Shown: piece after piece, positions 7,867 through 50,971 of the stretch | How the letters are laid out: each line of letters begins with the position of its first letter | Position numbering within the stretch: position 1 is the first letter of the stretch | Assembly (NCBI GenBank): GCA_054600435.1 | Contig: BAAIJX010000014.1 | Location: 186,001 to 250,000 of the forward strand | Source: Neophaeotheca triangularis | Taxonomy: Eukaryota | Length of the DNA: 64,000 nucleotides | Direction of reading: 5' to 3' | Position numbers and translations under genes: made by a program | The notes under the pieces: model-generated | Told to the model about the DNA's origin: nothing | Database searches by the model: none | The model's input: only the letters and a program-made list of their open reading frames with translations

Positions 7867-8726
7867 GGCGGGCTACGACGTGCACAACCAACCGAGCCTG
7901 ATCACGGGACCTTGCGAGCAGAAGCGCATTGGGCAGTTGGGAAGGGCGCTAGGGCGTACCGAGAGAGCCGGGGAGGTACTCCCCTGCCGAGCCTGTGGAA
8001 CGATGGTAGAACGATTCGAGAAGAGGAAGGAGAAGCTTGGCTTGGCTTGCGTGTGTCTAGAATGTAGGTATGCGTGGGAGGATATGGGGTCATCAGGACG
8101 ACGGGGAGGCTTTCCGAGATAGCTGTCCGCTTTGCCTAGGTTTTGGAACGATGGCGGAAGGATGGGAGAAGAAGCTTAAATGGGTCACGAGGAGGGCGGG
8201 AGGCGGGCGGGAGAAGGGTGGTGGAAGAAGATGATAGGTATGGAAGCTTGGGTGCCTAGCTGCCGTGGACATGGGCGTGGGTATGGGTGTTGGGTCACGG
8301 GGCGGACATGTACAGACACGGCATAGATACTACTGTAGGTACATGGGTATGGTAGTGGGGATTGTGTGAGAGGGATATCTGATCTACTACTGCTGGCAGG
8401 TACAAGGCAGCGGTAGCCGGCAAGGTAGGCAATAAATGGTCACCTGAACGGCCACAAAGTCAATGGCTCTCGTGGGACTCGTTCGTCTCGGGCTGAGTTC
8501 CGGGTCGCTGTCGGCCTGTCGTTTTTTAAGGCTGAGGAGCGCGGCGCTCGGTGTGAGTCAGTGAGGTCTCTGGCCCTGCTCACATGCAAGGGACGCGGCG
8601 TGGCTTAGCATTTCTGTCGTTCCTAGGAGATGCATGAAATACGTGAGAGATGTGAGAAATGTGAGGTGGTTGTCGTCCGGATAGCCTCGAGAGCTCCACC
8701 TTTCGAGGTGGAGTGGGGGCCGCATT

Positions 8727-9886
8727 GGGGCTGTGTTGTGTATGAGGTCAGCTGCACAGCCGCAACGTCAACTTTCTATCGGGGCTGATGAGGGTTGTGG
8801 GGATTGATGCTTGCCCTGTTGTACTTTAACTTACCTTACGCCTAGGTAGTAGGTAGGTACCTTGGAAGTATGTAGGTTGACGTTTGCAAGATGCAGGGGA
8901 GTGTGGCTGTCGCCTGGGTTAAGGTTAGGTCTAGAGATGAGAGGAAGAGTGTGGTTCGGGATTATTGTTGATGCCATTGCTACAGTATCTAAGGTATCTT
9001 CCCATCCAATGTCCTGAGGAAATTGCCATGACGGTAGTGCTCCCCGGTCTAAATGGACGGGAGATAGATAGACCACCTCTATCATTCCAAATGCAACAAT
9101 CGAAGCGAGACAACAATGGCAATGGCATGAATACGGTATGTCGAGTAATAAACGACCGTCTCGCTTACAGTAGGTATGAGAAAACCACAGCCCCCAGACG
9201 AGATGTTGATGTGAAAGCCACACGTAGCACGTGCGCTAGTGCAATATACTGTACAGTACTAAGGTGAGGTCGTCTAAGGTACCTTACCTCACTCGACTAA
9301 GGTACTCTCATCCGAATCCTTCCAAAGATTCAAGGTTGTTTTGACAATCCACTCTCCCGTCGATTATCGTGACACGGCTACATCGGCGACTCTCTTGGGT
9401 CATTGACTTCTCACGAGGACAAGTCTCGCCGGAAGCACTGTGCCGGTCATTCTTGGGACTCATTCGACTCATTCAATGATCGTTGGACAGGATAGTACAT
9501 AAGGTAGCTGTAATAAGCCTCAGGTTCCATGTATGCTTCTATAACAATAACAATATATTGCAGTTGGAAGCTATCGTCTATCCCAAGTCACTATCCTCCC
9601 CGCTCTGTCAGACTGAATCAGGAACCAACAACGTCTGTCTGTCTGTTTCAGCCTAAGCGCCCTCTCGAGTCCTCAAAGGTTATTTTATTATAATAATAAC
9701 CAACATCACATCACCGAACACCTTGGATCAAAAGGCCACCTCAAGCTTCTGCCTGGACTGAAACACTGCGACCAATCAAACGACGACTCAGCCTCACCGG
9801 TATCATATTACTAGGTATTTTAGTACCTACCTAAGGTACACCTACAGTACTAGTATACTAGTATTATTGTTGGCAGCTTCAGCCCC
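8727..9886. promoter_or_regulatory. Cluster of CDRE-like GNGGCTG sites upstream of crzA
   Basis: GNGGCTG or its reverse complement occurs at 8727, 8757, 8781, 8903 (GTGGCTG), 9188, 9789 (CAGCCTC) and 9880. Confidence 0.4.
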
Positions 9887-38658: not shown

Positions 38659-39462
38659 TCATTCGACATCGAATTCGACGCTCCCGAACCCCTCGAAGAT
38701 ACCACTCCAGTGCCCCTGCTCCTCCATGGGTATAGCCTCAAGGCAGCTACCTGGAAGAATGAGCTGGCCGGCTTCAAACTCCAAGCCATAGGCCGCGAGA
38801 CGGTTGGCCAGCCATGCAATGCCATTGACTGGGTTGCCAAGGATGGCATTGGTGTTACCAGACATTCTTTCAACGCCATTGAACTTCAGGCTGCCTCTGC
38901 AATCATTGAGTGCGAGCTCGGTGAGCTTTCTAGGGACGGCGCCGAGGATGACGGAACCGCAAGAGCCGTTGTCCGCCAGGGTGTCGGAGTGGTTGATCTC
39001 CCAGTTGGTCACGCGGGAGTCGATGATTTCGATGGCAGGCAAGATGTAGTCGATGGCGTTGATAACATCGATGACGGTCACCCCAGGTCCGCGTAAAGGG
39101 GCTTTTAACACCACCGCTGGCTCCAGTTCCACATAAGGCCGGATGTATTTGCTCCTCTTGAGCGGCGTACCTTCGTAAATGAGGCTGCTGCTGACAAGGA
39201 AGCCGTAGTCGGGCTCGTCGACGCCAAAGGCGGCTTGCATGGCTTTGGCGATGTTGCCCAGTTTGTACCTCACAAGGCGATCGCCATTCTTCACTGCGTT
39301 ACGAGTAGTGATGCGCTGCACTTCGAAGGCACTGTCGGTGTCCAAGGGTGGCCATGTTCGAGATGGCGGTGCCATCGGCTTATTGTCGTTCTTGGCTGTG
39401 TGCAGCGCAGCTGCGATGTCCCGTAACTCGAAAGGGTCCATTTTGCCCCTGAAGTCATTCAT
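38659..39462 (-). CDS. 2-oxo-acid hydratase/decarboxylase of the MhpD/HpcG(HpaH)/DmpH family (FAH superfamily), intronless
   Basis: YKLG...AMQAAFGVDEPDYGFL, VELEPAVVLKAPLRGPGVT, PAIEIIDSR, DTLADNGS, ILGNPVNGIAWLANRL, GQLILPGS. The start is MNDF at 39462 or MDPF at 39441. Confidence 0.88.
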   Translation of the reverse strand: MNDFRGKMDPFELRDIAAALHTAKNDNKPMAPPSRTWPPLDTDSAFEVQRITTRNAVKNGDRLVRYKLGNIAKAMQAAFGVDEPDYGFLVSSSLIYEGTPLKRSKYIRPYVELEPAVVLKAPLRGPGVTVIDVINAIDYILPAIEIIDSRVTNWEINHSDTLADNGSCGSVILGAVPRKLTELALNDCRGSLKFNGVERMSGNTNAILGNPVNGIAWLANRLAAYGLEFEAGQLILPGSCLEAIPMEEQGHWSGIFEGFGSVEFDVE

Positions 39463-40175
39463 GTTACTGTCTAAGTAGGAGGGTCCTGATCGCAGACGCT
39501 GTAAATCGGAACGTAAGACGTATCGTTCCTTGTGTAGGAGCGAACCCTTAGAAGAACCGAAGGTTTTGTGGGAGGGGCATCGTTCGAGGGCGCTACGGGA
39601 GAACCACAATGGGAACAGGAGTGTCAGCTATGGGGGATCTAAGAAGTTTCGACACCGCATCTTGTAGATGAATGCTAGTCTGAGCCTCATGAAACGTGCC
39701 AACTACATCGGGCCATTTACAAAGGACAGCACGATTGGGACGCGGGCACGTGTCGAAAACGTTGGACAAAACATCTGAGCATCCCCCCGTCTTGCTGGAA
39801 TAGTCCAAGAACTGTAGTTGCAGCCTAAAATGGCATGAACGAAACCGACTGCGTGCGTTCAGTATCGACGGTGCAGCATTGAACAACCGATCGATGTATT
39901 ACCGGATTCGGTAATTTGCAGCGAGTGCAGTACAATGCTCACCCCTCACAGCACCCTCCTGGACAATCAACGTATTCTCGATGCGGGATATATTCAAAGC
40001 TAGCGTTGGGTGACAACACGCGTGTTCTCGGGCTCCGATATGTCAAATAAAACTGGCCGACGCCATCGCTCGTCAAGTCGTAAACCTCATCCGCAACTAC
40101 TTTTCCCTTCGAGCTCCCTCATTCTGTTTGCGATTCCCCACCGCTGGACAAAGCTCTACGACTATATCAAACAGA

Positions 40176-41724
40176 ATGCCTTCTGAATTCGCTTCGACTC
40201 TGAAAGATCCAAATCTTTTCCAAGATAAATGCTACATTAACGGGCAATGGGTTTCCTCCTTCTCTAGCAAGAGCTTCGAAGTTCACAATCCAGCAACCGA
40301 TGACTTAATCGGCTCATGTCCCGAGGCGACGGTCGATGACATGGAACACGCGATCAAATCGGCCTCGATGGCGTTTCCAGCTTGGAAAGCTGTCTCCGGT
40401 CGCGCGCGAGGCCGCATCCTACGCAGAGTCTTCGACCTTCTTTGCGAAAACAAAGAGGACATTGGCAAAATCATTACCTCGGAGAATGGCAAGTCGATGG
40501 GTGATGGTCAAGGCGAAGTTCTGTTCGCCGCGGGATTTTTCGAATGGTTTGGTGAGGAGGCCGCTCGGGTATATGGCGACATCGCTCCACACAGTAATGC
40601 TTCAAGCCGGACGCGCATCCAAAAGGAACCCGTCGGTGTTTGTGGCCTAATCACCCCTTGGAACTTTCCTATCGCCATGGGTGCGCGCAAGATCGCCGCA
40701 GCGCTCGCAGCGGGCTGCACTGTAGTCCTCAAGTCCGATGGCTTGACCCCCTACGCTTCCAACGCACTCGTGGTGCTGTGCGAGCGCGCTGGCGTACCCA
40801 AAGGCGTTCTCAACGTCGTCACAGCTCTCGACAACACGCCCCAACTTGGCCTGACCATGTGCCAATCTGACACCGTCAGAAAGATCTCCTTCACCGGCTC
40901 GACGCGTGTGGGTAAGCTGCTCATGCAACAGTCGAGCTCCTCACTCAAGAAGCTGAGCTTGGAACTTGGCGGCAACGCACCTTTCATCGTCTTTGACGAC
41001 GCAGACGTCGAAGTCGCCGTCACAGCCGCTCTTGGCAGCAAGTTCAAAGTCACCGGCCAGACGTGTGTCTGCGCCAATCGCATCTTCGTCCAGGAAGGCA
41101 TTTACGATTCTTTCAGCCGACGACTCGTCGAGGAAGTGAAGAAGTTCAAAGTCGGCAACGGCTCTGATACTTCCGTCACCCATGGACCTCTGACCAACGG
41201 CGCCGCAAAGGTCGAGCAACACATCAAAGACGCGAAGAGCAAGAACGCCAGAGTTTTGCTGGGCGGGCAGAAGCTCCCTGCGCTGGGTAGGAACTACCAC
41301 GAACTCACCATCCTCGGCGACGTCGATGATTCAATGATGGTGAACAGCGAGGAGACCTTTGGACCTATTGCAGCTCTCAGCAAGTTCAAAACGGAAGACG
41401 AGGTCGTCAAGCGAGCCAACAGCGCCGAAGTTGGTCTCGCGTCGTATCTGATGACAACCGACTTGGGTAGGTCCCATCGTGTCTCTGAAGCCTTGGAGGC
41501 CGGGATGGTTGCTATCAACACGGGTGTCATTTCTGATCCCGCCGCACCGTAAGTGTACTGCCGGAAAGTGTTTAGCTACACATGAGATTGCTGACTTTGT
41601 ATCTGCTTCCAGGTTCGGAGGTGTGAAGCACTCGGGCTTCGGTCGTGAGGGCAGCAAATACGGTTTAGACGATTACATGGTGTTGAAAACTGTCATCACA
41701 GGCGAGATTAGCTCGCGGCTGTAG
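40176..41724 (+). CDS. Succinate-semialdehyde dehydrogenase-like ALDH (GabD/Uga2 family) with PTS1 (-SRL), 2 exons
   Basis: [35 protein letters not shown] (catalytic Cys), [20 protein letters not shown]. Intron 41549-41612. Ends EISSRL. Confidence 0.92.
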
Positions 41725-42271
41725 TTGAGTTAGGGAACAGTTGTACATGTCAGACTTTTGAAAAATTGTCTCGTTACATCCCGTCTGTTACAGAGGAATA
41801 CATGCATGCCTGAGGCAGGCATTGATCTTGGCGCATCGACACCTTCCTTTCACCTCCACTGCCTATTAAGGTTGCTACTAACCTTCAGCTCCTACATTGA
41901 TGCTTAACAGTAACGCCATTCAACAAAGGCCAAGGCCTTGTAAGATCTTTTTGTGACATGATCTCTCCAACCGAAACTGGTCTGCAAGTCGTGATTGGCC
42001 GACGATAATGGAACTGTTTGACTGTTGCCAATAATGATAATGTCACGCTCTTGCAGCAAACCGCGCACTGTCTTTCCCGATATGGAAATATTCTTGGAGT
42101 CGACATGTCGGCCAATTATTATACTACCGATAAGTACCCAAGAAGCCGACCTAGATATAAGCTAGTAAGGTATCGACGAAGGGGTGCTCGAGTTCTTTTG
42201 CCCCCTCCCCCTCCTTTGCAATTCAAAAGCTGAAGCCTTACGACACGCTGATACCATTTCCAGCAACAATA

Positions 42272-43767
42272 ATGTTCGATGTCATAATAGTTGGTGCTGG
42301 GCTGAGTGGCCTTCAAGCCGCCTGGTCAGCCAAACAAGCTGGTCTTTCCACCATTGTCGTTGAGGCCAGAAACAGAGTCGGAGGCAAAGTCTGGAGTGAA
42401 CCTACGCTGGGAGGCCTTGGAAAGGCGGACTTGGGAGCTGCTTGGGTTAACACAAATCACCAGCCTAGGATTGCCGCTTACTTGAGGCAATTTGGGCTTG
42501 AGACGGTCGAGCAGCGGCTCACAGGGACCGCCGTCGTGCAAGTCAAGAAGGGCGAGAGGGAGGAGTTCCCGTTTGGCATTACGCCGAATGTGAGTTAGAA
42601 GAAGGGGCTTTGTAAGAGAAGATGTTGTCCGCTAATGATATAACCTCAAGTTCACGCCTGACGAGAAGCGGAATCTCGAATTCATCCGCGACCACATCGA
42701 GGCCGAGTCTCAATCACCAGGCCCGCCGAAGCAAGAGGATGACCAGGTGACTCTCGATCAATATGTACGCAAGCTCGGTGCAACTGCGCAGACGGCTCAG
42801 ATGGTGAATATCTGGTCGCGTGTTATGCATGGCGTCGAGTCCACGGAGCAGTCTGCGGCGTGGTTCATCGACTATTGCAGGCGCAACAAAGGCTTGTTGG
42901 CGATCCGAAAAGATGATCCTGACGGGGGAAACTACCAGAGACTCTTCGCTGGTAAGATGACGCGCACAAAAAATTGGTCGGGCGGCTTTAGTAATCTTCT
43001 GTGCAGGCACCCAATCCATTGCTGAAGGTGTTGCCGATCTACTCGGCCGCGAAAACATACGACTCGGTTCTCCAGTAGCATCGATTGCAAACGACAAGAA
43101 CCATGTCACGGTGACGACAAACAACGGCGATGTCTTTTCCGCCAGGAAGTGCATCATCTCCATGCCAAGTACTATGTTGAAAGATCTGAACTTCTCTCCA
43201 CCGCTACCACAACGCCTACGAGAAGTCACGAATTCTACGATTCTCGGTCACTACAACAAATCAATACTAATCTATCGCAAACCCTGGTGGAGAGAAGCTG
43301 GCTACAATGGCTTCGTCATGAGCTTCGACAGCCCCGTGTGCTTGGGCCGGGACACCAGCATTGACGACAAGGGCCTATACATGCTCACTTGTTTCGTCAA
43401 CGGTGCGAACGGAGAAGCCTGGTCAAAGTTGTACCCCCATCAGCGCCGCAAGTCAGTCATCGACCAGGTGGCCTTTCTCTACGGTCAAGGACCAGACTCG
43501 GAAGTCTACCGCCCAGTCGAGGTCTTTGACCAGATTTGGAAGCATGAGAAGTACAGTCAAGGTGCTTTGGCGCCTATCCATGCGCTGGGTCACTATACCG
43601 GGTACGCAGATGTCTATGGTAAGCCCACAGGGAATGTGCACTTTGTGGGGACTGAGTACTCCCCTGAGTGGAAGGGCTACATGGAAGGTGCATTGTGTTC
43701 TGGGGAGATTGGGGCCGGAGAAGTCGCTGAAAGCCTTCGAAACAACTCCGCAAGGGCCAAATTGTGA
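42272..43767 (+). CDS. Flavin-containing amine oxidase (MAO/putrescine oxidase family) with PTS1 (-AKL), 3 exons
   Basis: DVIIVGAGLSGL, EARNRVGGK, DLGAAWVN, HFVGTE...WKGYMEGAL. Introns are 42590-42650 and 42952-43006. Ends SARAKL. Confidence 0.92.
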
Positions 43768-44468
43768 GTCGGCTCTATACAAAACATAAAAATGTTCCTT
43801 TTTCTCTTGATCTCTCGTTCTTTCGATATTCCCTATTCCAGCGATTTCCGGTACATAAATAGCAGTGGGGCGAAAGGAAGAGCAATACCCATTCCCAGAT
43901 GCTATCCTACATCTGTGCTCGATACGGGAGCTTACTAGACGACATGGAATCGTAGATTGCAGTTCCGTCGTTTTCTCAGTCGCAAGGCTAAACCTTTGAG
44001 GCCCTGGAGATGCAATTCTGCCCGATTTCCCGATCCGGCAACATTGTGCGAATGTACCTCCTAGCGACTCTCAGGGGCCAAACGAAGGCCCTTCCTTCAC
44101 AATTGCACTCGCCAAGTAAAACAAATTGGAATCGACAATTGTGGGCATTCCAAACACTACTGATGCATTGCCTTTCATGGAAATCTGCTCGAGCGACCAG
44201 ACGTGAGCTGTTTCGAGCCATTTGAGATTCCATGTCTCTTTCAGTCCAAAATAAGCTCGACAGGAGCCCGGGTCTACAATGTGTGCTGGGCCTACCAGAA
44301 TTCGAGGATCAATTAGTGCATTGCAGCATCTCGAGCGATCCTTAAGTCTAAGCAAATTGACAACTGAATCACATTTCCGTTACGTCTTTTGCTAGGTTAC
44401 TCGTTGACATCCGGTACAGAATGCCTTCTGCGGAACCCGGGTCGAAACGCAACCTTGATCATAACATC

Positions 44469-45424
44469 ATGGGTAGCTCTACTATTGAAATGCCAGAATC
44501 AGATTACGAGAAGCGTCGCCTCGATGCCCGGAGTCTTTCGCATCCTGCCTATTACCAAGCCCATCCGGTACAGAAACGTCTTCAACGAAAACGAGGAGGA
44601 GGACGCACGCTGACTTGTCATATCCAGGCACCGATGGCTATGGGCGGCTTCGCGACAACGCTCCTAACCGTCTCACTCGCCATGATGGAGTTTCGAGGCG
44701 TTCACGTCCAGACCGTCTTCGTCGGAAACCTCTGCTTTGTAGCGGGAATCGGCCTATTGATTTCTGCGCAGTGGGAAATGGCCAGGGGCAACACCTTCTC
44801 CTATACGGTTCTCCAGTCTTTTGGTACCAAGTCACCGGTTCCATTTAATTACAAGGAAGATTGTGGCTGATGTGCTACAAAGGTCTGTTCTACAGCGGCT
44901 ACGGCGCGATTATGATTCCTGTCCTGGGAATCGCTGATGCATACGGTGGAGATGATACACCCGAATACTACAATGCCATGGGTTTCTTCGTTCTGAGCAA
45001 GTCGCAATACCATGCCAAGGTCGTTGCGCGGCCATACTTTACTAACAACACCGATAGTCTGGGCCGTCCTGAACATCTTCTTCCTGATCGCTTCCATGCC
45101 ATTGTAAGCTTCCGACCAGATCGAACCCCAGTCCAGCGCAATACAGCTAACTAGTCAACTACTAGTAACATCGTCTACATCCTCATCTTCACAACGGTCG
45201 AGCTCTGCTTCGCCCTTGATGCCAGCTCATACTTCGCCCGCGCTGACGGCAAAATCGCGACTTCAGATGCCCTAATGAAGTCGGCCGGGGTTTTTGGCTT
45301 CATCTCGGGACTCTTGGGCTACTATACGACTCTGCACTACTTGTGCTCGCATGCATTGCCTTTCAGGGTTCCGATGGGAGATACTTCCAAGTACTTTGCA
45401 AGAATGAAGCATGGCAGGTTGTGA
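44469..45424 (+). CDS. GPR1/FUN34/YaaH (AceTr/Ato) family transporter, 5 exons
   Basis: Spliced HPAPMAMGGFATTLL...QWEMARGNTFSYTV..FGLFY..YG...YNAMGFFVLIWAVLN. Introns are 44568-44627, 44824-44882, 44997-45057 (GC-AG) and approximately 45104-45165. The stop TGA is at 45422-45424. Confidence 0.88.
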
Positions 45425-46047: not shown

Positions 46048-46356
46048 TCACGACGAATGCGAATTGTCGGCGCAAGACCAAGCAGAGCTGCCATTCTCGC
46101 CGCTGTACTCATTCACAATCCCGACAATCGCTCCATAAGATCCAGCAACCATGCAGAAAGTCCCTATGAAGATGACGAACACACTCCAGCCCACCATGCG
46201 AGTCACGTCACCTCGCAAGGCCGTGATATCCCTAGCAGCCCCAGTAGGCACGCGGTCGATATGCTCGATCTTGGTATCATGCTTATTCGTTTCGGGATCG
46301 TTTGAAAGCGAGTCGCGAATGGAGGACCGAGAATGGAGTTGGGAAGAAGACGCCAT
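46048..46356 (-). pseudogene. Internally deleted relic of an Mtr-type (Aa_trans) amino-acid permease
   Basis: A 102-aa ORF with a hydrophilic N-terminal tail joined directly to WSVFVIFIGTFCMVAGSYGAIVGIVNEY...SAWSCADNS, the last TM and SCADNS terminus typical of fungal Mtr-like permeases (normally about 11 TM). Confidence 0.7.
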
Positions 46357-47083: not shown

Positions 47084-48194
47084 ATGGGCGCTCTTACTCA
47101 GGTGCTGAGCGCGCAGGACGTGTCCAAGAACGTAATGAGACCCAATCACAAATTCACCAACCTTCCAGAGTCCCTTGTCAAAGAAGCAGGCATGGTCGAA
47201 ACCAGAGACTTCAATGCCGTCGAGCACATCAAGTACGAGGCACCATCGAAGATTTTCACTACTCACGAGCTCGGCTTGGGAGAGATCGGAATCTCCAATA
47301 CCGCAGTCTCAGAACCGTTCTCGCTGTTCTCCGAGGACGCCATCAAGCAGATGAGGCGCGAGGTCTTCAATCCAGAGGTGCTGGATCGTTTTCACTGCCA
47401 AACGGGGCCCTCATCCGGACAAGTGCGCGGTCACTGCCCCGAGTAAGTCAACTTGAACGCCAGTTTCACTCCGCAATCCACCATTTTTGACACTGCATCG
47501 CTCTAGATACGCGCCTTTCATATACAACGCCTGGAACAGCCCCGAACTCTTGAAGATCGTCTCGGATATCGCGGGGGTCGATCTCGTGCCCGCAATGCCC
47601 TACGACATGGGCCACACAAACATATCCATCAACTCCACGGGCGGCGAAGAGAAAGACTCAATCGCGCCGGGCGAGCAAACCGCAACCAACTCGTCCGGGT
47701 ACTGCGAATCCGCCTTCGGTTGGCACACGGACAGCTACCCCTTCGTGGTGGTCACTATGCTCTCCGACTGCGAGGGCATGGTAGGAGGCGAGACGGCTAT
47801 CCGCACAGGCAACGGTACGCCGATGAAAGCCCGCGGGCCCAGGTTGGGCACTGCCGTCGTGATGCAAGGCCAATACGTGCAGCATGCAGCGACGCCAGCA
47901 GTGAGCGGCCGCGAGCGCATTTCCATGGTCACCAGCTTCAGGCCCAAAAGCGCAACCATCAAGGACGGCACCATTCTGCGCGGTGTGCGCAACATCAGCA
48001 ATCTCGAGACGCTCTACAGGCAGTTCAGCGAGTATCGTTTGGAGAACCTGGAGGATCGTGTGCGAGACGAGCTGCGCCTCTTGCACAAGAATCATACGGC
48101 GAAGCGCAAGTTTGATACTGCACAGCTTCGGGAATGGCTTTTCGAGCAGAGGGAGTACATCGATCACATGCTGAGGGAAGTGCGAGCGGACTAG
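47084..48194 (+). CDS. Uncharacterised Fe(II)/2-oxoglutarate-dependent oxygenase, 2 exons
   Basis: GWHTDSYPF (HxD), GGET, QGQYVQHAA (distal His), RISMVTS (2OG-binding Arg). Intron 47443-47506. Confidence 0.75.
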
Positions 48195-48874: not shown

Positions 48875-50971
48875 TCACCCTAGCATGGTCTGCAGCCGCT
48901 TATCGTGAACTACATGCATCCAATGGGCGTAATCCTTCAGCTCATCCAAGCGCTCCCATACTTCGTTGATGACATCGAGCAGCTGCATGATTTGCTTCTG
49001 CGGGTATTTACGGGAGAGAGCAAGCATGCGCTCCTTCACAAAGTCCCTGGAATCGCTGATTTCCTTGCTCCTGGCGTCATCGGAATCTTGAGAAGTCTTT
49101 GGAAGTCGTAGTTGGCTCGCGCATGAGATGAGGGTTAGGAGCTGCATTCGACACGCTCCGGAGGTGACGGGAATGCACTTGATGATGTTCAGAGTGAATT
49201 CGGCAAGGGCGCAGGCGCATGATTCTACATAGTTTGAATTGGCTTGATGGTCCGCGTCTGCTGGCGGGTGGAAACGTTGATCGTAGCACTTTGGGAAGAG
49301 AGAGCCGGCCGCGAGTTTGTTTTCGAGTATCGTGGGAAAGCATGTGTATATTTCCAGGAGAGCAATATGCCGATTGGCGTCTGCAGACCGAATTAAATCG
49401 ACTTTTGGCGTGGCGCCGTGGCCGTAGTCAAGAATTGCATCCTCTTGTGGTATGACGATGGCGTACACGAACTCTTCTAACGACAGAGCCCAATGCACAT
49501 CAATCTCTGGAAGATCTGCCTCGGGCTGGCGGCGTGCTGGTTGTACGTCGGTACACCGCCGCCTTCGGAGCACTCTCCCGACCTCCCCTAAAGCAAAATG
49601 AAGCTCTGTACTGATGCCGGTCCAAGGGTGCGGTAGTTCTGGCTCGCGTTCACTCTCGCCTGGAACATGAGGGTTCGGGGAGCCATATCCTGGAAACGGG
49701 GCCATTGGCACAGGATCGATAAAGCTTGCGAGCATTTCCCAATGCATAAGAGAGTCCGTGAAGAACTTCTCCTCTCTAAGGTCGCTCGAGCCATGCGCAG
49801 TACCGCAGAGATAACTTTGCATCAGGCTTCGAGCGACGGAAAGATATTGAAGGCCCAGGTTTGAGGGTTGCTGCCATGCGGAGGAAAGACCAAGGAGGAG
49901 GAGACTGACCATGATGTTTTCCATGGGGAGCTTTCCCGCGCGGTTGAGTTGTAGGTCGAGTTGCAATGACCTCCACGCTTGCAAGTGCTTGAGTTGTCCA
50001 AGCGGACCCATGTAGAGATAATGGTTGGCGAGATGGGCAATGGCCATACTTTGTATAGCAATGTGAATTGTCTTTGACGATTTCATCTCTTCCACCATTG
50101 TCCGAAAGGGGTTGAGTGTAGAGTCAAAACACGAGAACAGAGGGCATACTGCAGTGAAATAGTGTTGCACCAAATGTTCTTCCGAGAAATGGGCGACCGA
50201 CGAAGGAGTTGACAGGCGGTAGAATGTGCCCAGAAGGCTTCTTGCACCCGGTCTCAGCCCCGAAGAAGGTGCCATTGCGCGCTCGGCAGAGGTTCGGGTG
50301 TCTCTAGGATTGGTCCCTTGCGGTCCCAGACGTTGAAGCGGTTGCCTCTGCGTCAGCGGGTCTGTCCATGGGAACAGTTGGGCCTGCGCCTGGTAGTCTA
50401 AACTTGGTGGCATGCTGATAGAGCCAAGGTTGAACATGGAGATATCGTTGGCCGTCATATCATTGGCAAATGGCATACCAAATTGCCAGAGGTCGTCAAA
50501 ATCCGTGCCTAGTGCAGCCTGGTCACGGTAGGGGAAGGTTACATCCACGGGTCCGGCTGGCTGCACAGGAGCATCTTCTACGACGGCCTGTGAATCACCG
50601 CCAATCGGTGACTCTGGCAGGGTCGAGTGGTCGACATGGGCAGAGATTTGCTGAGTCTGGTTGACCTGGCTGGTACCATGGATTGTCTGCAGAGCGTTTG
50701 TCTCTTCGGTTGGCGGAACGCAAGTGGTGGCGGCCGGCTCGGTGCAGGCGACGTTTGCTTCATCAGCGGCATGGTTCCTGAAATCTGCACTCGCTCCGTT
50801 TAATCTTTCGTGCTTTCGCGACCATTTGTACTGGAAATCGTAGCCGGGGCATTCAACCGAAGCTCGTTGGCAAGCTTGACAGGCAGGCCTTGCCTGATCG
50901 CACTTTATTTTCTTCGTCTTGCATCGAGCACAGCCCTCACGGGACTTGGAAGGTTTGGCCACCCGTTTCAT
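48875..50971 (-). CDS. Zn(II)2Cys6 transcription factor with Fungal_trans_2-type C-terminal domain
   Basis: SREGCARCKTKKIKCDQARPACQACQRASVECPGY; LVQHYF...FDSTLNPFR, HWEMLASF, PHPWTG, HWMHVV. Confidence 0.9.
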   Translation of the reverse strand: MKRVAKPSKSREGCARCKTKKIKCDQARPACQACQRASVECPGYDFQYKWSRKHERLNGASADFRNHAADEANVACTEPAATTCVPPTEETNALQTIHGTSQVNQTQQISAHVDHSTLPESPIGGDSQAVVEDAPVQPAGPVDVTFPYRDQAALGTDFDDLWQFGMPFANDMTANDISMFNLGSISMPPSLDYQAQAQLFPWTDPLTQRQPLQRLGPQGTNPRDTRTSAERAMAPSSGLRPGARSLLGTFYRLSTPSSVAHFSEEHLVQHYFTAVCPLFSCFDSTLNPFRTMVEEMKSSKTIHIAIQSMAIAHLANHYLYMGPLGQLKHLQAWRSLQLDLQLNRAGKLPMENIMVSLLLLGLSSAWQQPSNLGLQYLSVARSLMQSYLCGTAHGSSDLREEKFFTDSLMHWEMLASFIDPVPMAPFPGYGSPNPHVPGESEREPELPHPWTGISTELHFALGEVGRVLRRRRCTDVQPARRQPEADLPEIDVHWALSLEEFVYAIVIPQEDAILDYGHGATPKVDLIRSADANRHIALLEIYTCFPTILENKLAAGSLFPKCYDQRFHPPADADHQANSNYVESCACALAEFTLNIIKCIPVTSGACRMQLLTLISCASQLRLPKTSQDSDDARSKEISDSRDFVKERMLALSRKYPQKQIMQLLDVINEVWERLDELKDYAHWMHVVHDKRLQTMLG

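Follow-up and report, generated by a model that had tools for sequence, protein, structure and literature searches.

Predicted peroxisomal co-targeting of an adjacent aldehyde dehydrogenase and amine oxidase in a conserved gene cluster of filamentous ascomycetes

Two adjacent genes on contig BAAIJX010000014.1 of Neophaeotheca triangularis encode an aldehyde dehydrogenase (ALDH) and a flavin amine oxidase that end in -SRL and -AKL, respectively. Both lie within a stretch of 64,000 nucleotides (positions 186,001 to 250,000 of the contig), hereafter the window, whose numbering is used throughout. As SRL and AKL are type 1 peroxisomal targeting signals (PTS1), the locus raises the question of whether the two enzymes operate together in peroxisomes, and in which pathway. 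The reading that we favor is that they are co-targeted to peroxisomes and share a pathway; we assign it a probability of roughly 0.6, a figure that excludes the nature of the substrate. Co-targeting taken by itself, as predicted from established import biology, is likely, and the two genes probably constitute the peroxisomal part of a conserved, uncharacterized catabolic cluster of filamentous ascomycetes.

C-terminal tails of the two enzymes

Both tripeptides lie at the true C-termini of the spliced models and are canonical. The ALDH gene contains a single intron of 64 bases (41549–41612; GTAAGT...GCTGAC...CAG) in which donor, branch point and acceptor are all standard, and its 494-residue product ends ITGEISSRL. 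Without splicing the frame terminates at PAAP, and intron removal regains a conserved motif. A splicing or annotation artefact at this end was ruled out, as other acceptors disrupt the conserved PFGG motif and 50 orthologues have the same last exon. The oxidase is assembled from three exons (42272–42589, 42651–42951 and 43007–43767) into a protein of 459 residues ending NNSARAKL, with an arginine at position −4 that recurs in 61 of 119 relatives. The models are 100% identical and equal in length to deposited N. triangularis models g1545 and g1546 (P0121 and P0001), themselves gene predictions and not cDNA; the two C-termini given in a preliminary description of this locus are thereby confirmed. 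No in-frame ATG lies upstream in the first frame of either gene. The 54 codons preceding the ALDH ATG (40014–40175, plus strand) are open and in frame, lack an ATG and are rich in Arg and Ser near their start, and an out-of-frame ATG occurs at 40041 in a frame overlapping the ALDH start. In the predicted structures both tails are coil; the ALDH was modeled as a monomer, and confidence is low for residues 442–474.

A canonical PTS1 was defined as [SAC][KRH][LM], and a relaxed formula was used as quoted in PMC12316961. When all six frames of the window were scanned for open stretches of at least 20 residues, 12 of the 1832 tripeptides preceding stops were canonical, SRL and AKL included, and the pair is therefore far above sequence chance. 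Conservation was assessed with the best 120 of 254 oxidase matches and the best 120 of 8000 scored ALDH matches, the query being excluded (n = 119 each). Sixty-nine of the ALDH matches (P0122–P0240) are predictions without the last exon, in which a PTS1 is invisible; these were dropped, leaving 50 full-length relatives. Canonical ends were present in 70 of the 119 oxidases (relaxed, 103; terminal Leu, 111) and in 13 of the 50 ALDHs (relaxed, 36; terminal Leu, 46), with Lys, Arg, His or Asn at −2 in 101/119 and 45/50, respectively. The most frequent ALDH ends were TRL (10), YKL (8), ANL (7) and SHL (6), and every ALDH in the 13 same-contig oxidase–ALDH pairs with a full ALDH ends x[KRHN]L. Right-aligned tails varied in length and at positions −10 to −4, ALDH tail lengths differing by up to nine residues. 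Retention of the terminal Leu and of a basic residue or Asn at −2 despite such variable tails counts for peroxisomal targeting, unlike the situation in the hydratases and oxygenases encoded nearby, for which canonical signals were found in 0 of 119 and 2 of 38 relatives, respectively (the latter chosen manually among 150 matches because they extend to the C-terminal region). Judging from this pattern, selection for import into peroxisomes seems to have acted on both tails, and the expectation that PTS1 would be kept in orthologues was largely borne out, more weakly for the ALDH than for the oxidase. Genes for Pex14 and catalase are present in this genome.

Several findings weigh against our reading. 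Conservation of a canonical end is weaker for the ALDH, nine of whose relatives end YKL or YRL, outside both formulas as quoted in PMC12316961, and four of whose relatives have no PTS1-like end (GNI, SYT, YSF and NLY); both partners are canonical in just 2 of the 13 same-contig pairs. We also compared the oxidase with paralogues outside the cluster. Sixty-three metagenome loci carried an oxidase gene, and its end could be read in 44 of them. Forty of these had no cluster neighbor and yielded 29 distinct tails, of which 17 were canonical. As unclustered paralogues carry PTS1 as often as the relatives of our oxidase (17/29 versus 70/119), the oxidase tag is a family default, and the earlier proposal that the signals independently support linkage of the genes fails on the oxidase side. 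The clustered oxidases of these loci had two distinct tails, AQL and DGL, the latter at L034. The SRL/AKL pair is thus much less surprising against family priors than against sequence chance, and the ALDH tag, not the oxidase tag, is the informative one. Of the other ALDH ends that could be read in this genome, 3 of 13 are canonical; three further ends were unreadable. Four other ALDH genes, on contigs C85, C84, C3 and C2 (L007, L008, L015 and L006), end AKL, SKL, SKL and TKL.

These results bear on the possibility that the ALDH is mainly cytosolic or dual-localized, with a weak tail under loose selection, so that only the oxidase would be firmly peroxisomal. Non-canonical ends in 37 of 50 full-length relatives, the four signal-less ones and the lack of a basic residue in the GEIS that precedes SRL all fit this alternative, as does the weak import reported for non-canonical signals in PMC12316961. 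Yet the terminal Leu persists in 46 of 50 relatives despite the differing tail lengths, SRL sends HxnX to peroxisomes of Aspergillus nidulans (PMC9304392), and ANI suffices for AatA according to PMC12316961; we regard this alternative as quite improbable. Three signal-less ALDHs have a hydratase gene on the same contig and no oxidase gene there among the matches listed (best 120).

Catalytic features of the ALDH and the oxidase

The best Protein Data Bank (PDB) matches of the ALDH are succinic semialdehyde dehydrogenases (SSADHs), including Escherichia coli GabD and human ALDH5A1 types (E values of 1e-156 to 1e-138), and its catalytic C297 and E263 align with GabD C288 and E254. GabD binds succinic semialdehyde (SSA) through R164, R282 and S445 (PMC2823781). 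Arg164 and Ser445 are retained as R171 and S453, but the R282 position is Lys (K291) in 120 of 120 clade members, the context being KFKVT versus KFRN or KFRS in SSADHs; the core SSADH of this genome keeps the Arg. The ALDH also scores 610.5 bits against a cut-off of 646.35 for TIGR01780, a model built for prokaryotes. Together, the changed residue and the score below the cut-off suggest that the substrate may be a compound other than SSA. KSDG is the sequence of the cofactor loop. By general ALDH rules a loop without Glu admits NADP+, and the enzyme possibly works with this cofactor.

The core SSADH (C2:444079–445680; L002, L011) has an Arg/Ser-rich leader of mitochondrial type without acidic residues and ends -PLQGS, whereas the clustered paralogue lacks a leader and has the PTS1 tail, so the contrast with core SSADHs drawn earlier holds in this genome. 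A second Met lies immediately before the enzyme domain of the core SSADH, making dual localization of that protein possible. By its sequence features the clustered ALDH belongs to a distinct clade of SSADH-subfamily paralogues that has an altered substrate residue and appears to have been re-targeted from the mitochondrion to the peroxisome.

The oxidase has the characteristics of a PF01593 flavin monoamine oxidase (MAO): the FAD-binding motifs, the MAO fold, a Lys above flavin N5 and a cage Tyr. Its predicted structure (mean predicted local distance difference test score, 91.6) superimposes on MAO-A/B, 8p84 and putrescine oxidase with template modeling (TM) scores of about 0.9 at 24–30% identity. 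The equivalents of Lys296 and Tyr435 are retained as K291 and Y431, while the covalent-flavin Cys397 is Ala (A393) and Tyr398 is Leu (L394) in 36 of 36 aligned sequences. This sets the enzyme apart from MAO-A/B proper and implies non-covalent FAD and half an aromatic cage. Position 319 corresponds to the MAO-B Tyr326 site, at which putrescine oxidase has the acidic residue that binds the second amine; it is Leu, Val or Ile in 36 of 36 sequences, a further difference from putrescine oxidase. No other close member of the family is encoded in this genome. R192 and R321 align with MAO-B Ile199 and Leu328, which are active-site residues (PMC9737692), and looked like carboxylate binders; as they are common to most unclustered paralogues, they were dropped as a sign of an anionic substrate, which is a further point on the negative side.

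The surrounding cluster and the proposed pathway

The remaining features of the locus are listed with the two genes in Table 1. The hydratase-like gene is divergent from the ALDH gene. The closest relatives of the ALDH (86% identity, ending -PKL) and of the oxidase (81%, ending -ARL) are both on contigs of 10,502 bp, and in Monosporascus, Phialemonium and Fusarium nematophilum the locus tags of the two genes differ by two. Contig size was used as a proxy for a shared contig, a measure that is weak for megabase contigs and rests on values picked by eye (23 oxidase, 33 ALDH and 16 hydratase). It gave 17 oxidase–ALDH, 15 ALDH–hydratase and 3 oxidase–hydratase matches. A cluster gene adjoins the oxidase gene in 8 of the 63 metagenome loci: hydratase, oxidase and ALDH occur in one row at L034, the neighbor is the hydratase at L048, the ALDH at L038 and the regulator at L066, and the oxygenase adjoins the oxidase at L035–L037, which are near-identical copies. 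At L072 the neighbor is an ALDH of another type. Among the oxidase loci of at least 10 kb, a cluster gene stood beside the oxidase in 0 of 21, all of which hold distant paralogues. From these data we conclude that the genes for oxidase, ALDH and hydratase are repeatedly neighbors in filamentous ascomycetes and that linkage is better shown by the conserved neighborhood than by PTS1. In the published literature searched, which included few subscription papers, we found neither the cluster nor a fungal SSADH paralogue of peroxisomes described.

Table 1. Features of the locus in window coordinates
Feature	Position	Strand	Basis
SSADH-subfamily aldehyde dehydrogenase, non-core paralogue, 494 aa	40176..41724	+	Exons 40176-41548, 41613-41724
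ALDH PTS1 codons, SRL	41713..41721	+	Sequence; stop TAG 41722-41724
Soluble flavin monoamine-oxidase-family enzyme, 459 aa	42272..43767	+	Introns 42590-42650, 42952-43006
Oxidase PTS1 codons, AKL, Arg at -4	43756..43764	+	Sequence; stop TGA 43765-43767
MhpD/HpcG-type 2-oxo-enoate hydratase-like gene (FAH superfamily), intronless	38659..39462	-	Pfam PF01557, best PDB match 2eb4, tree
Gpr1/Fun34/YaaH-family transporter gene	44421..45424	+	Pfam PF01184 in two exons; exon structure partly worked out
Aa_trans amino-acid permease remnant, short frame	46048..46347	-	Last 50 codons match final helix of intact paralogues
Fe(II)/2-oxoglutarate oxygenase-like gene	47084..48194	+	HxD motif (WHTD), probable intron 47443-47506, ends -RAD
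Zn2Cys6 transcription factor, Fungal_trans_2 domain, candidate cluster regulator	48875..50971	-	29%-identical relative adjoins oxidase in L066

By its sequence the hydratase belongs to the MhpD/HpcG family, and its specific function is not assignable from curated models: it scores 188.7 bits against a cut-off of 351.5 for TIGR02312, and 158–189 bits against cut-offs of 350–409 for all four MhpD/HpcG equivalog models. It is 58–63% identical to its closest actinobacterial relatives. In a midpoint-rooted tree of 51 rows, all 20 fungal sequences group together (95/94) within Actinobacteria, making a single ancient horizontal transfer of actinobacterial origin probable. The surroundings of 42 actinobacterial hydratase loci (L097–L138, around 8001–8800) include a DmoA/LadA-like monooxygenase in 40, an ALDH of another type in 37, an IclR regulator in 31, an amine oxidase of another, Pnao-like clade in 24 and an HpcH aldolase in 13, apparently a recurrent, uncharacterized cluster. 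An MFS transporter and sometimes ribBA are also found there, as is a protein group with a SnoaL-like representative in 41 of 42. Considering both neighborhoods, the hydratase is tied to amine oxidation in bacteria and fungi alike, with unrelated partners. Reading the substrate from the bacterial cluster was rejected, as its oxidase belongs to the other clade (about 25% identity) and its monooxygenase is DmoA/LadA-like.

These neighborhoods also bear on whether the two peroxisomal enzymes are coupled at all. In bacterial homoprotocatechuate catabolism, SSADH follows HpcG and an aldolase. The ALDH could likewise serve a semialdehyde of a hydratase branch, with the oxidase, carrying PTS1 like most of its family, as an optional feeder. 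The canonical tails of 17 of 29 unclustered oxidases, the 15 ALDH–hydratase contig matches and the actinobacterial loci, with an ALDH in 37 of 42 and an amine oxidase in just 24, are consistent with an uncoupled pair. In Aspergillus niger, moreover, the ALDH lies five to six accession numbers from the hydratase, and the oxidase relative that was found lies elsewhere, an arrangement that counts against a shared pathway. Such uncoupling is nevertheless rather unlikely, as in several genomes the oxidase and ALDH genes adjoin each other or have locus tags that differ by two, the cluster contains no aldolase (two HpcH-family genes sit on other contigs), and a peroxisomal ALDH paired with a hydratase lacking PTS1 would require import of the aldehyde. 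Of the earlier proposal that deamination and aldehyde capture are co-compartmentalized, the part concerning compartment stands, in that both tails look selected for import; capture by the ALDH of the oxidase's own aldehyde is the weaker part, given the A. niger layout and the -DGL end at L034.

The absence of PTS1 from the hydratase (-DVE) and the oxygenase (-RAD), also pointed out earlier, was upheld. Hidden targeting was considered and set aside, as neither gene showed a PTS1 reachable by read-through past the stop or a PTS2-like motif in the first 60 residues. The further step, that the pathway is split between compartments, is not established by these ends, since proteins lacking a signal can be imported by piggybacking. 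Four of the 119 hydratase relatives carry added C-terminal tails (P0340 and P0355, PKL; P0331, VKL; P0250, SKI); they include members of Hypoxylaceae and Cercospora and suggest that PTS1 may have been gained more than once. Piggybacking or weak signals might bring the hydratase, and perhaps also the oxygenase, into peroxisomes, with most steps sharing the organelle. In the hxn cluster, a partner that is transcribed divergently has been proposed to enter by piggybacking (PMC13705651), and the hydratase gene is likewise divergent from that of the ALDH. We consider an unsplit pathway unlikely: 115 of the 119 hydratase relatives, a set that includes bacterial proteins, have no such tails, no PTS2 was found in the first 60 residues of either protein, and the import of HxnW is itself a proposal.

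The other neighbors offer hints about the substrate. The oxygenase is sub-threshold in Pfam; its Atlas scores against Fe2OG clusters (0.96) and against a cluster in which 49% of the members carry HalD (0.94), together with 567 relatives at E ≤ 0.001, most of those with a readable motif having HxD, suggest a fungal Fe/2-oxoglutarate (2OG) oxygenase family that is HalD/BesD-like by Atlas features and, by its HxD, a hydroxylase. The permease remnant is 78% identical to the end of the paralogue on contig C90, intact paralogues belonging to PF01490. At L036 (3–7700), the oxygenase and oxidase genes stand in one row with those for HglS (2-oxoadipate dioxygenase) and an amino-acid permease, a hint of lysine-type catabolism. 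The Gpr1/Fun34/YaaH gene adjoins the oxidase gene here, its last frame apparently ending -GRL, and does so in 0 of 63 metagenome loci; from its family's roles we presume that such a transporter could export ammonia or move an acid.

According to the reading that we favor, Pex5 would import both the ALDH and the oxidase, so that H2O2 from flavin-dependent deamination would arise beside catalase. The ALDH would then oxidize an aldehyde of this pathway in the same organelle, most simply the product of the oxidase; that it acts on a pathway aldehyde there seems probable. The oxidase would convert an amine to a succinic- or glutaric-type semialdehyde, which the ALDH, possibly with NADP+, would convert to the dicarboxylate. 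Our proposal for the amine is tentative, at somewhat less than even odds: an amino-acid-like compound, either an omega-amino acid of the γ-aminobutyric acid (GABA) or 5-aminovalerate type or a derivative of lysine or ornithine. It is based on the permease remnant, the permease and HglS at L036, the HalD-like oxygenase and retention of R171 and S453. The Lys in place of R282 speaks against it, as does our failure to find HglS in this genome in a search with one query. A broader scenario, to which we give low odds, is that filamentous ascomycetes rebuilt an actinobacterial amine-catabolic module by combining a horizontally acquired 2-oxo-enoate hydratase with an Fe/2OG amino-acid hydroxylase, an SSADH paralogue of altered targeting and an oxidase of a different clade. 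Peroxisomes would then convert an omega-amino or lysine-type amino acid to a dicarboxylate without a transaminase, and the hydratase would be gaining its own PTS1 in several lineages.

Relationship to known systems

Amine oxidases in peroxisomes, and fungal clusters that are in part peroxisomal, are already known, and the headline is not surprising in that respect. The value of the finding lies in a clade of the SSADH subfamily whose substrate residue is changed and which has apparently moved from mitochondrion to peroxisome. This clade is the marker of an orphan cluster that is widespread, being present in Aspergillus, Penicillium, Fusarium, Colletotrichum and Xylariales, and whose hydratase is likely of actinobacterial origin. 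Since relatives occur in tractable hosts, A. niger among them, substrate and compartment layout are directly testable. If the proposal is correct, a direct peroxisomal oxidase route to succinic or glutaric semialdehyde would be a new branch of fungal GABA or lysine metabolism.

The ALDH resembles GabD, ALDH5A1 and the fungal core SSADHs, its best PDB matches, in C297/E263, R171 and S453, and differs from them in the Lys at R282, the KSDG loop, the missing leader, the PTS1 tail and the score below the TIGR01780 cut-off. In Arthrobacter pAO1, a flavin-dependent 4-methylaminobutanoate oxidase yields SSA directly and is encoded with SsaDH. This pair has the chemistry proposed for our cluster, but its oxidase is a weak match to ours (7rt0, E 4e-20) and the system is bacterial, without an organelle. 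Its closest known enzymes are MAO-A/B, the bacterial putrescine and cyclohexylamine oxidases and the fungal AnFAO and MAO-N. Our oxidase shares its fold with MAO-A/B and 8p84 (TM 0.89–0.92) and keeps the Lys296 and Tyr435 equivalents (K291 and Y431); it differs in its low identity, in the Ala/Leu at Cys397/Tyr398 and in having no membrane tail. MAO-N, which carries the PTS1 -ARL, is distant from it (E 2e-15). AnFAO is described in PMC9415688.

In plants, peroxisomal amine oxidases (AtCuAO2/3 and AtPAO2-4) followed by ALDH10A9 have been proposed (PMC3751259, PMC6513885 and PMC7576179). As here, an H2O2-producing amine oxidase with PTS1 would be joined in its organelle by an ALDH proposed to oxidize its aldehyde. 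The plant oxidases are copper or polyamine oxidases, whereas ours is an MAO-B-like flavoenzyme, and the plant ALDH is an aminoaldehyde dehydrogenase, ours a member of the SSADH subfamily; the plant descriptions consulted also mention no gene cluster. The hxn nicotinate cluster of A. nidulans is likewise a fungal catabolic cluster with PTS1 on some enzymes only; it also encodes transporters, a regulatory protein and a 2OG dioxygenase (PMC9304392 and PMC13705651). Its HxnX ends -SRL, has been shown to be peroxisomal and is conserved in Pezizomycotina (PMC9304392), and piggyback import of HxnW has been raised, not proven (PMC13705651). The enzymes and substrate differ from those proposed here, and hxn has one PTS1 enzyme where our cluster has two, encoded side by side.

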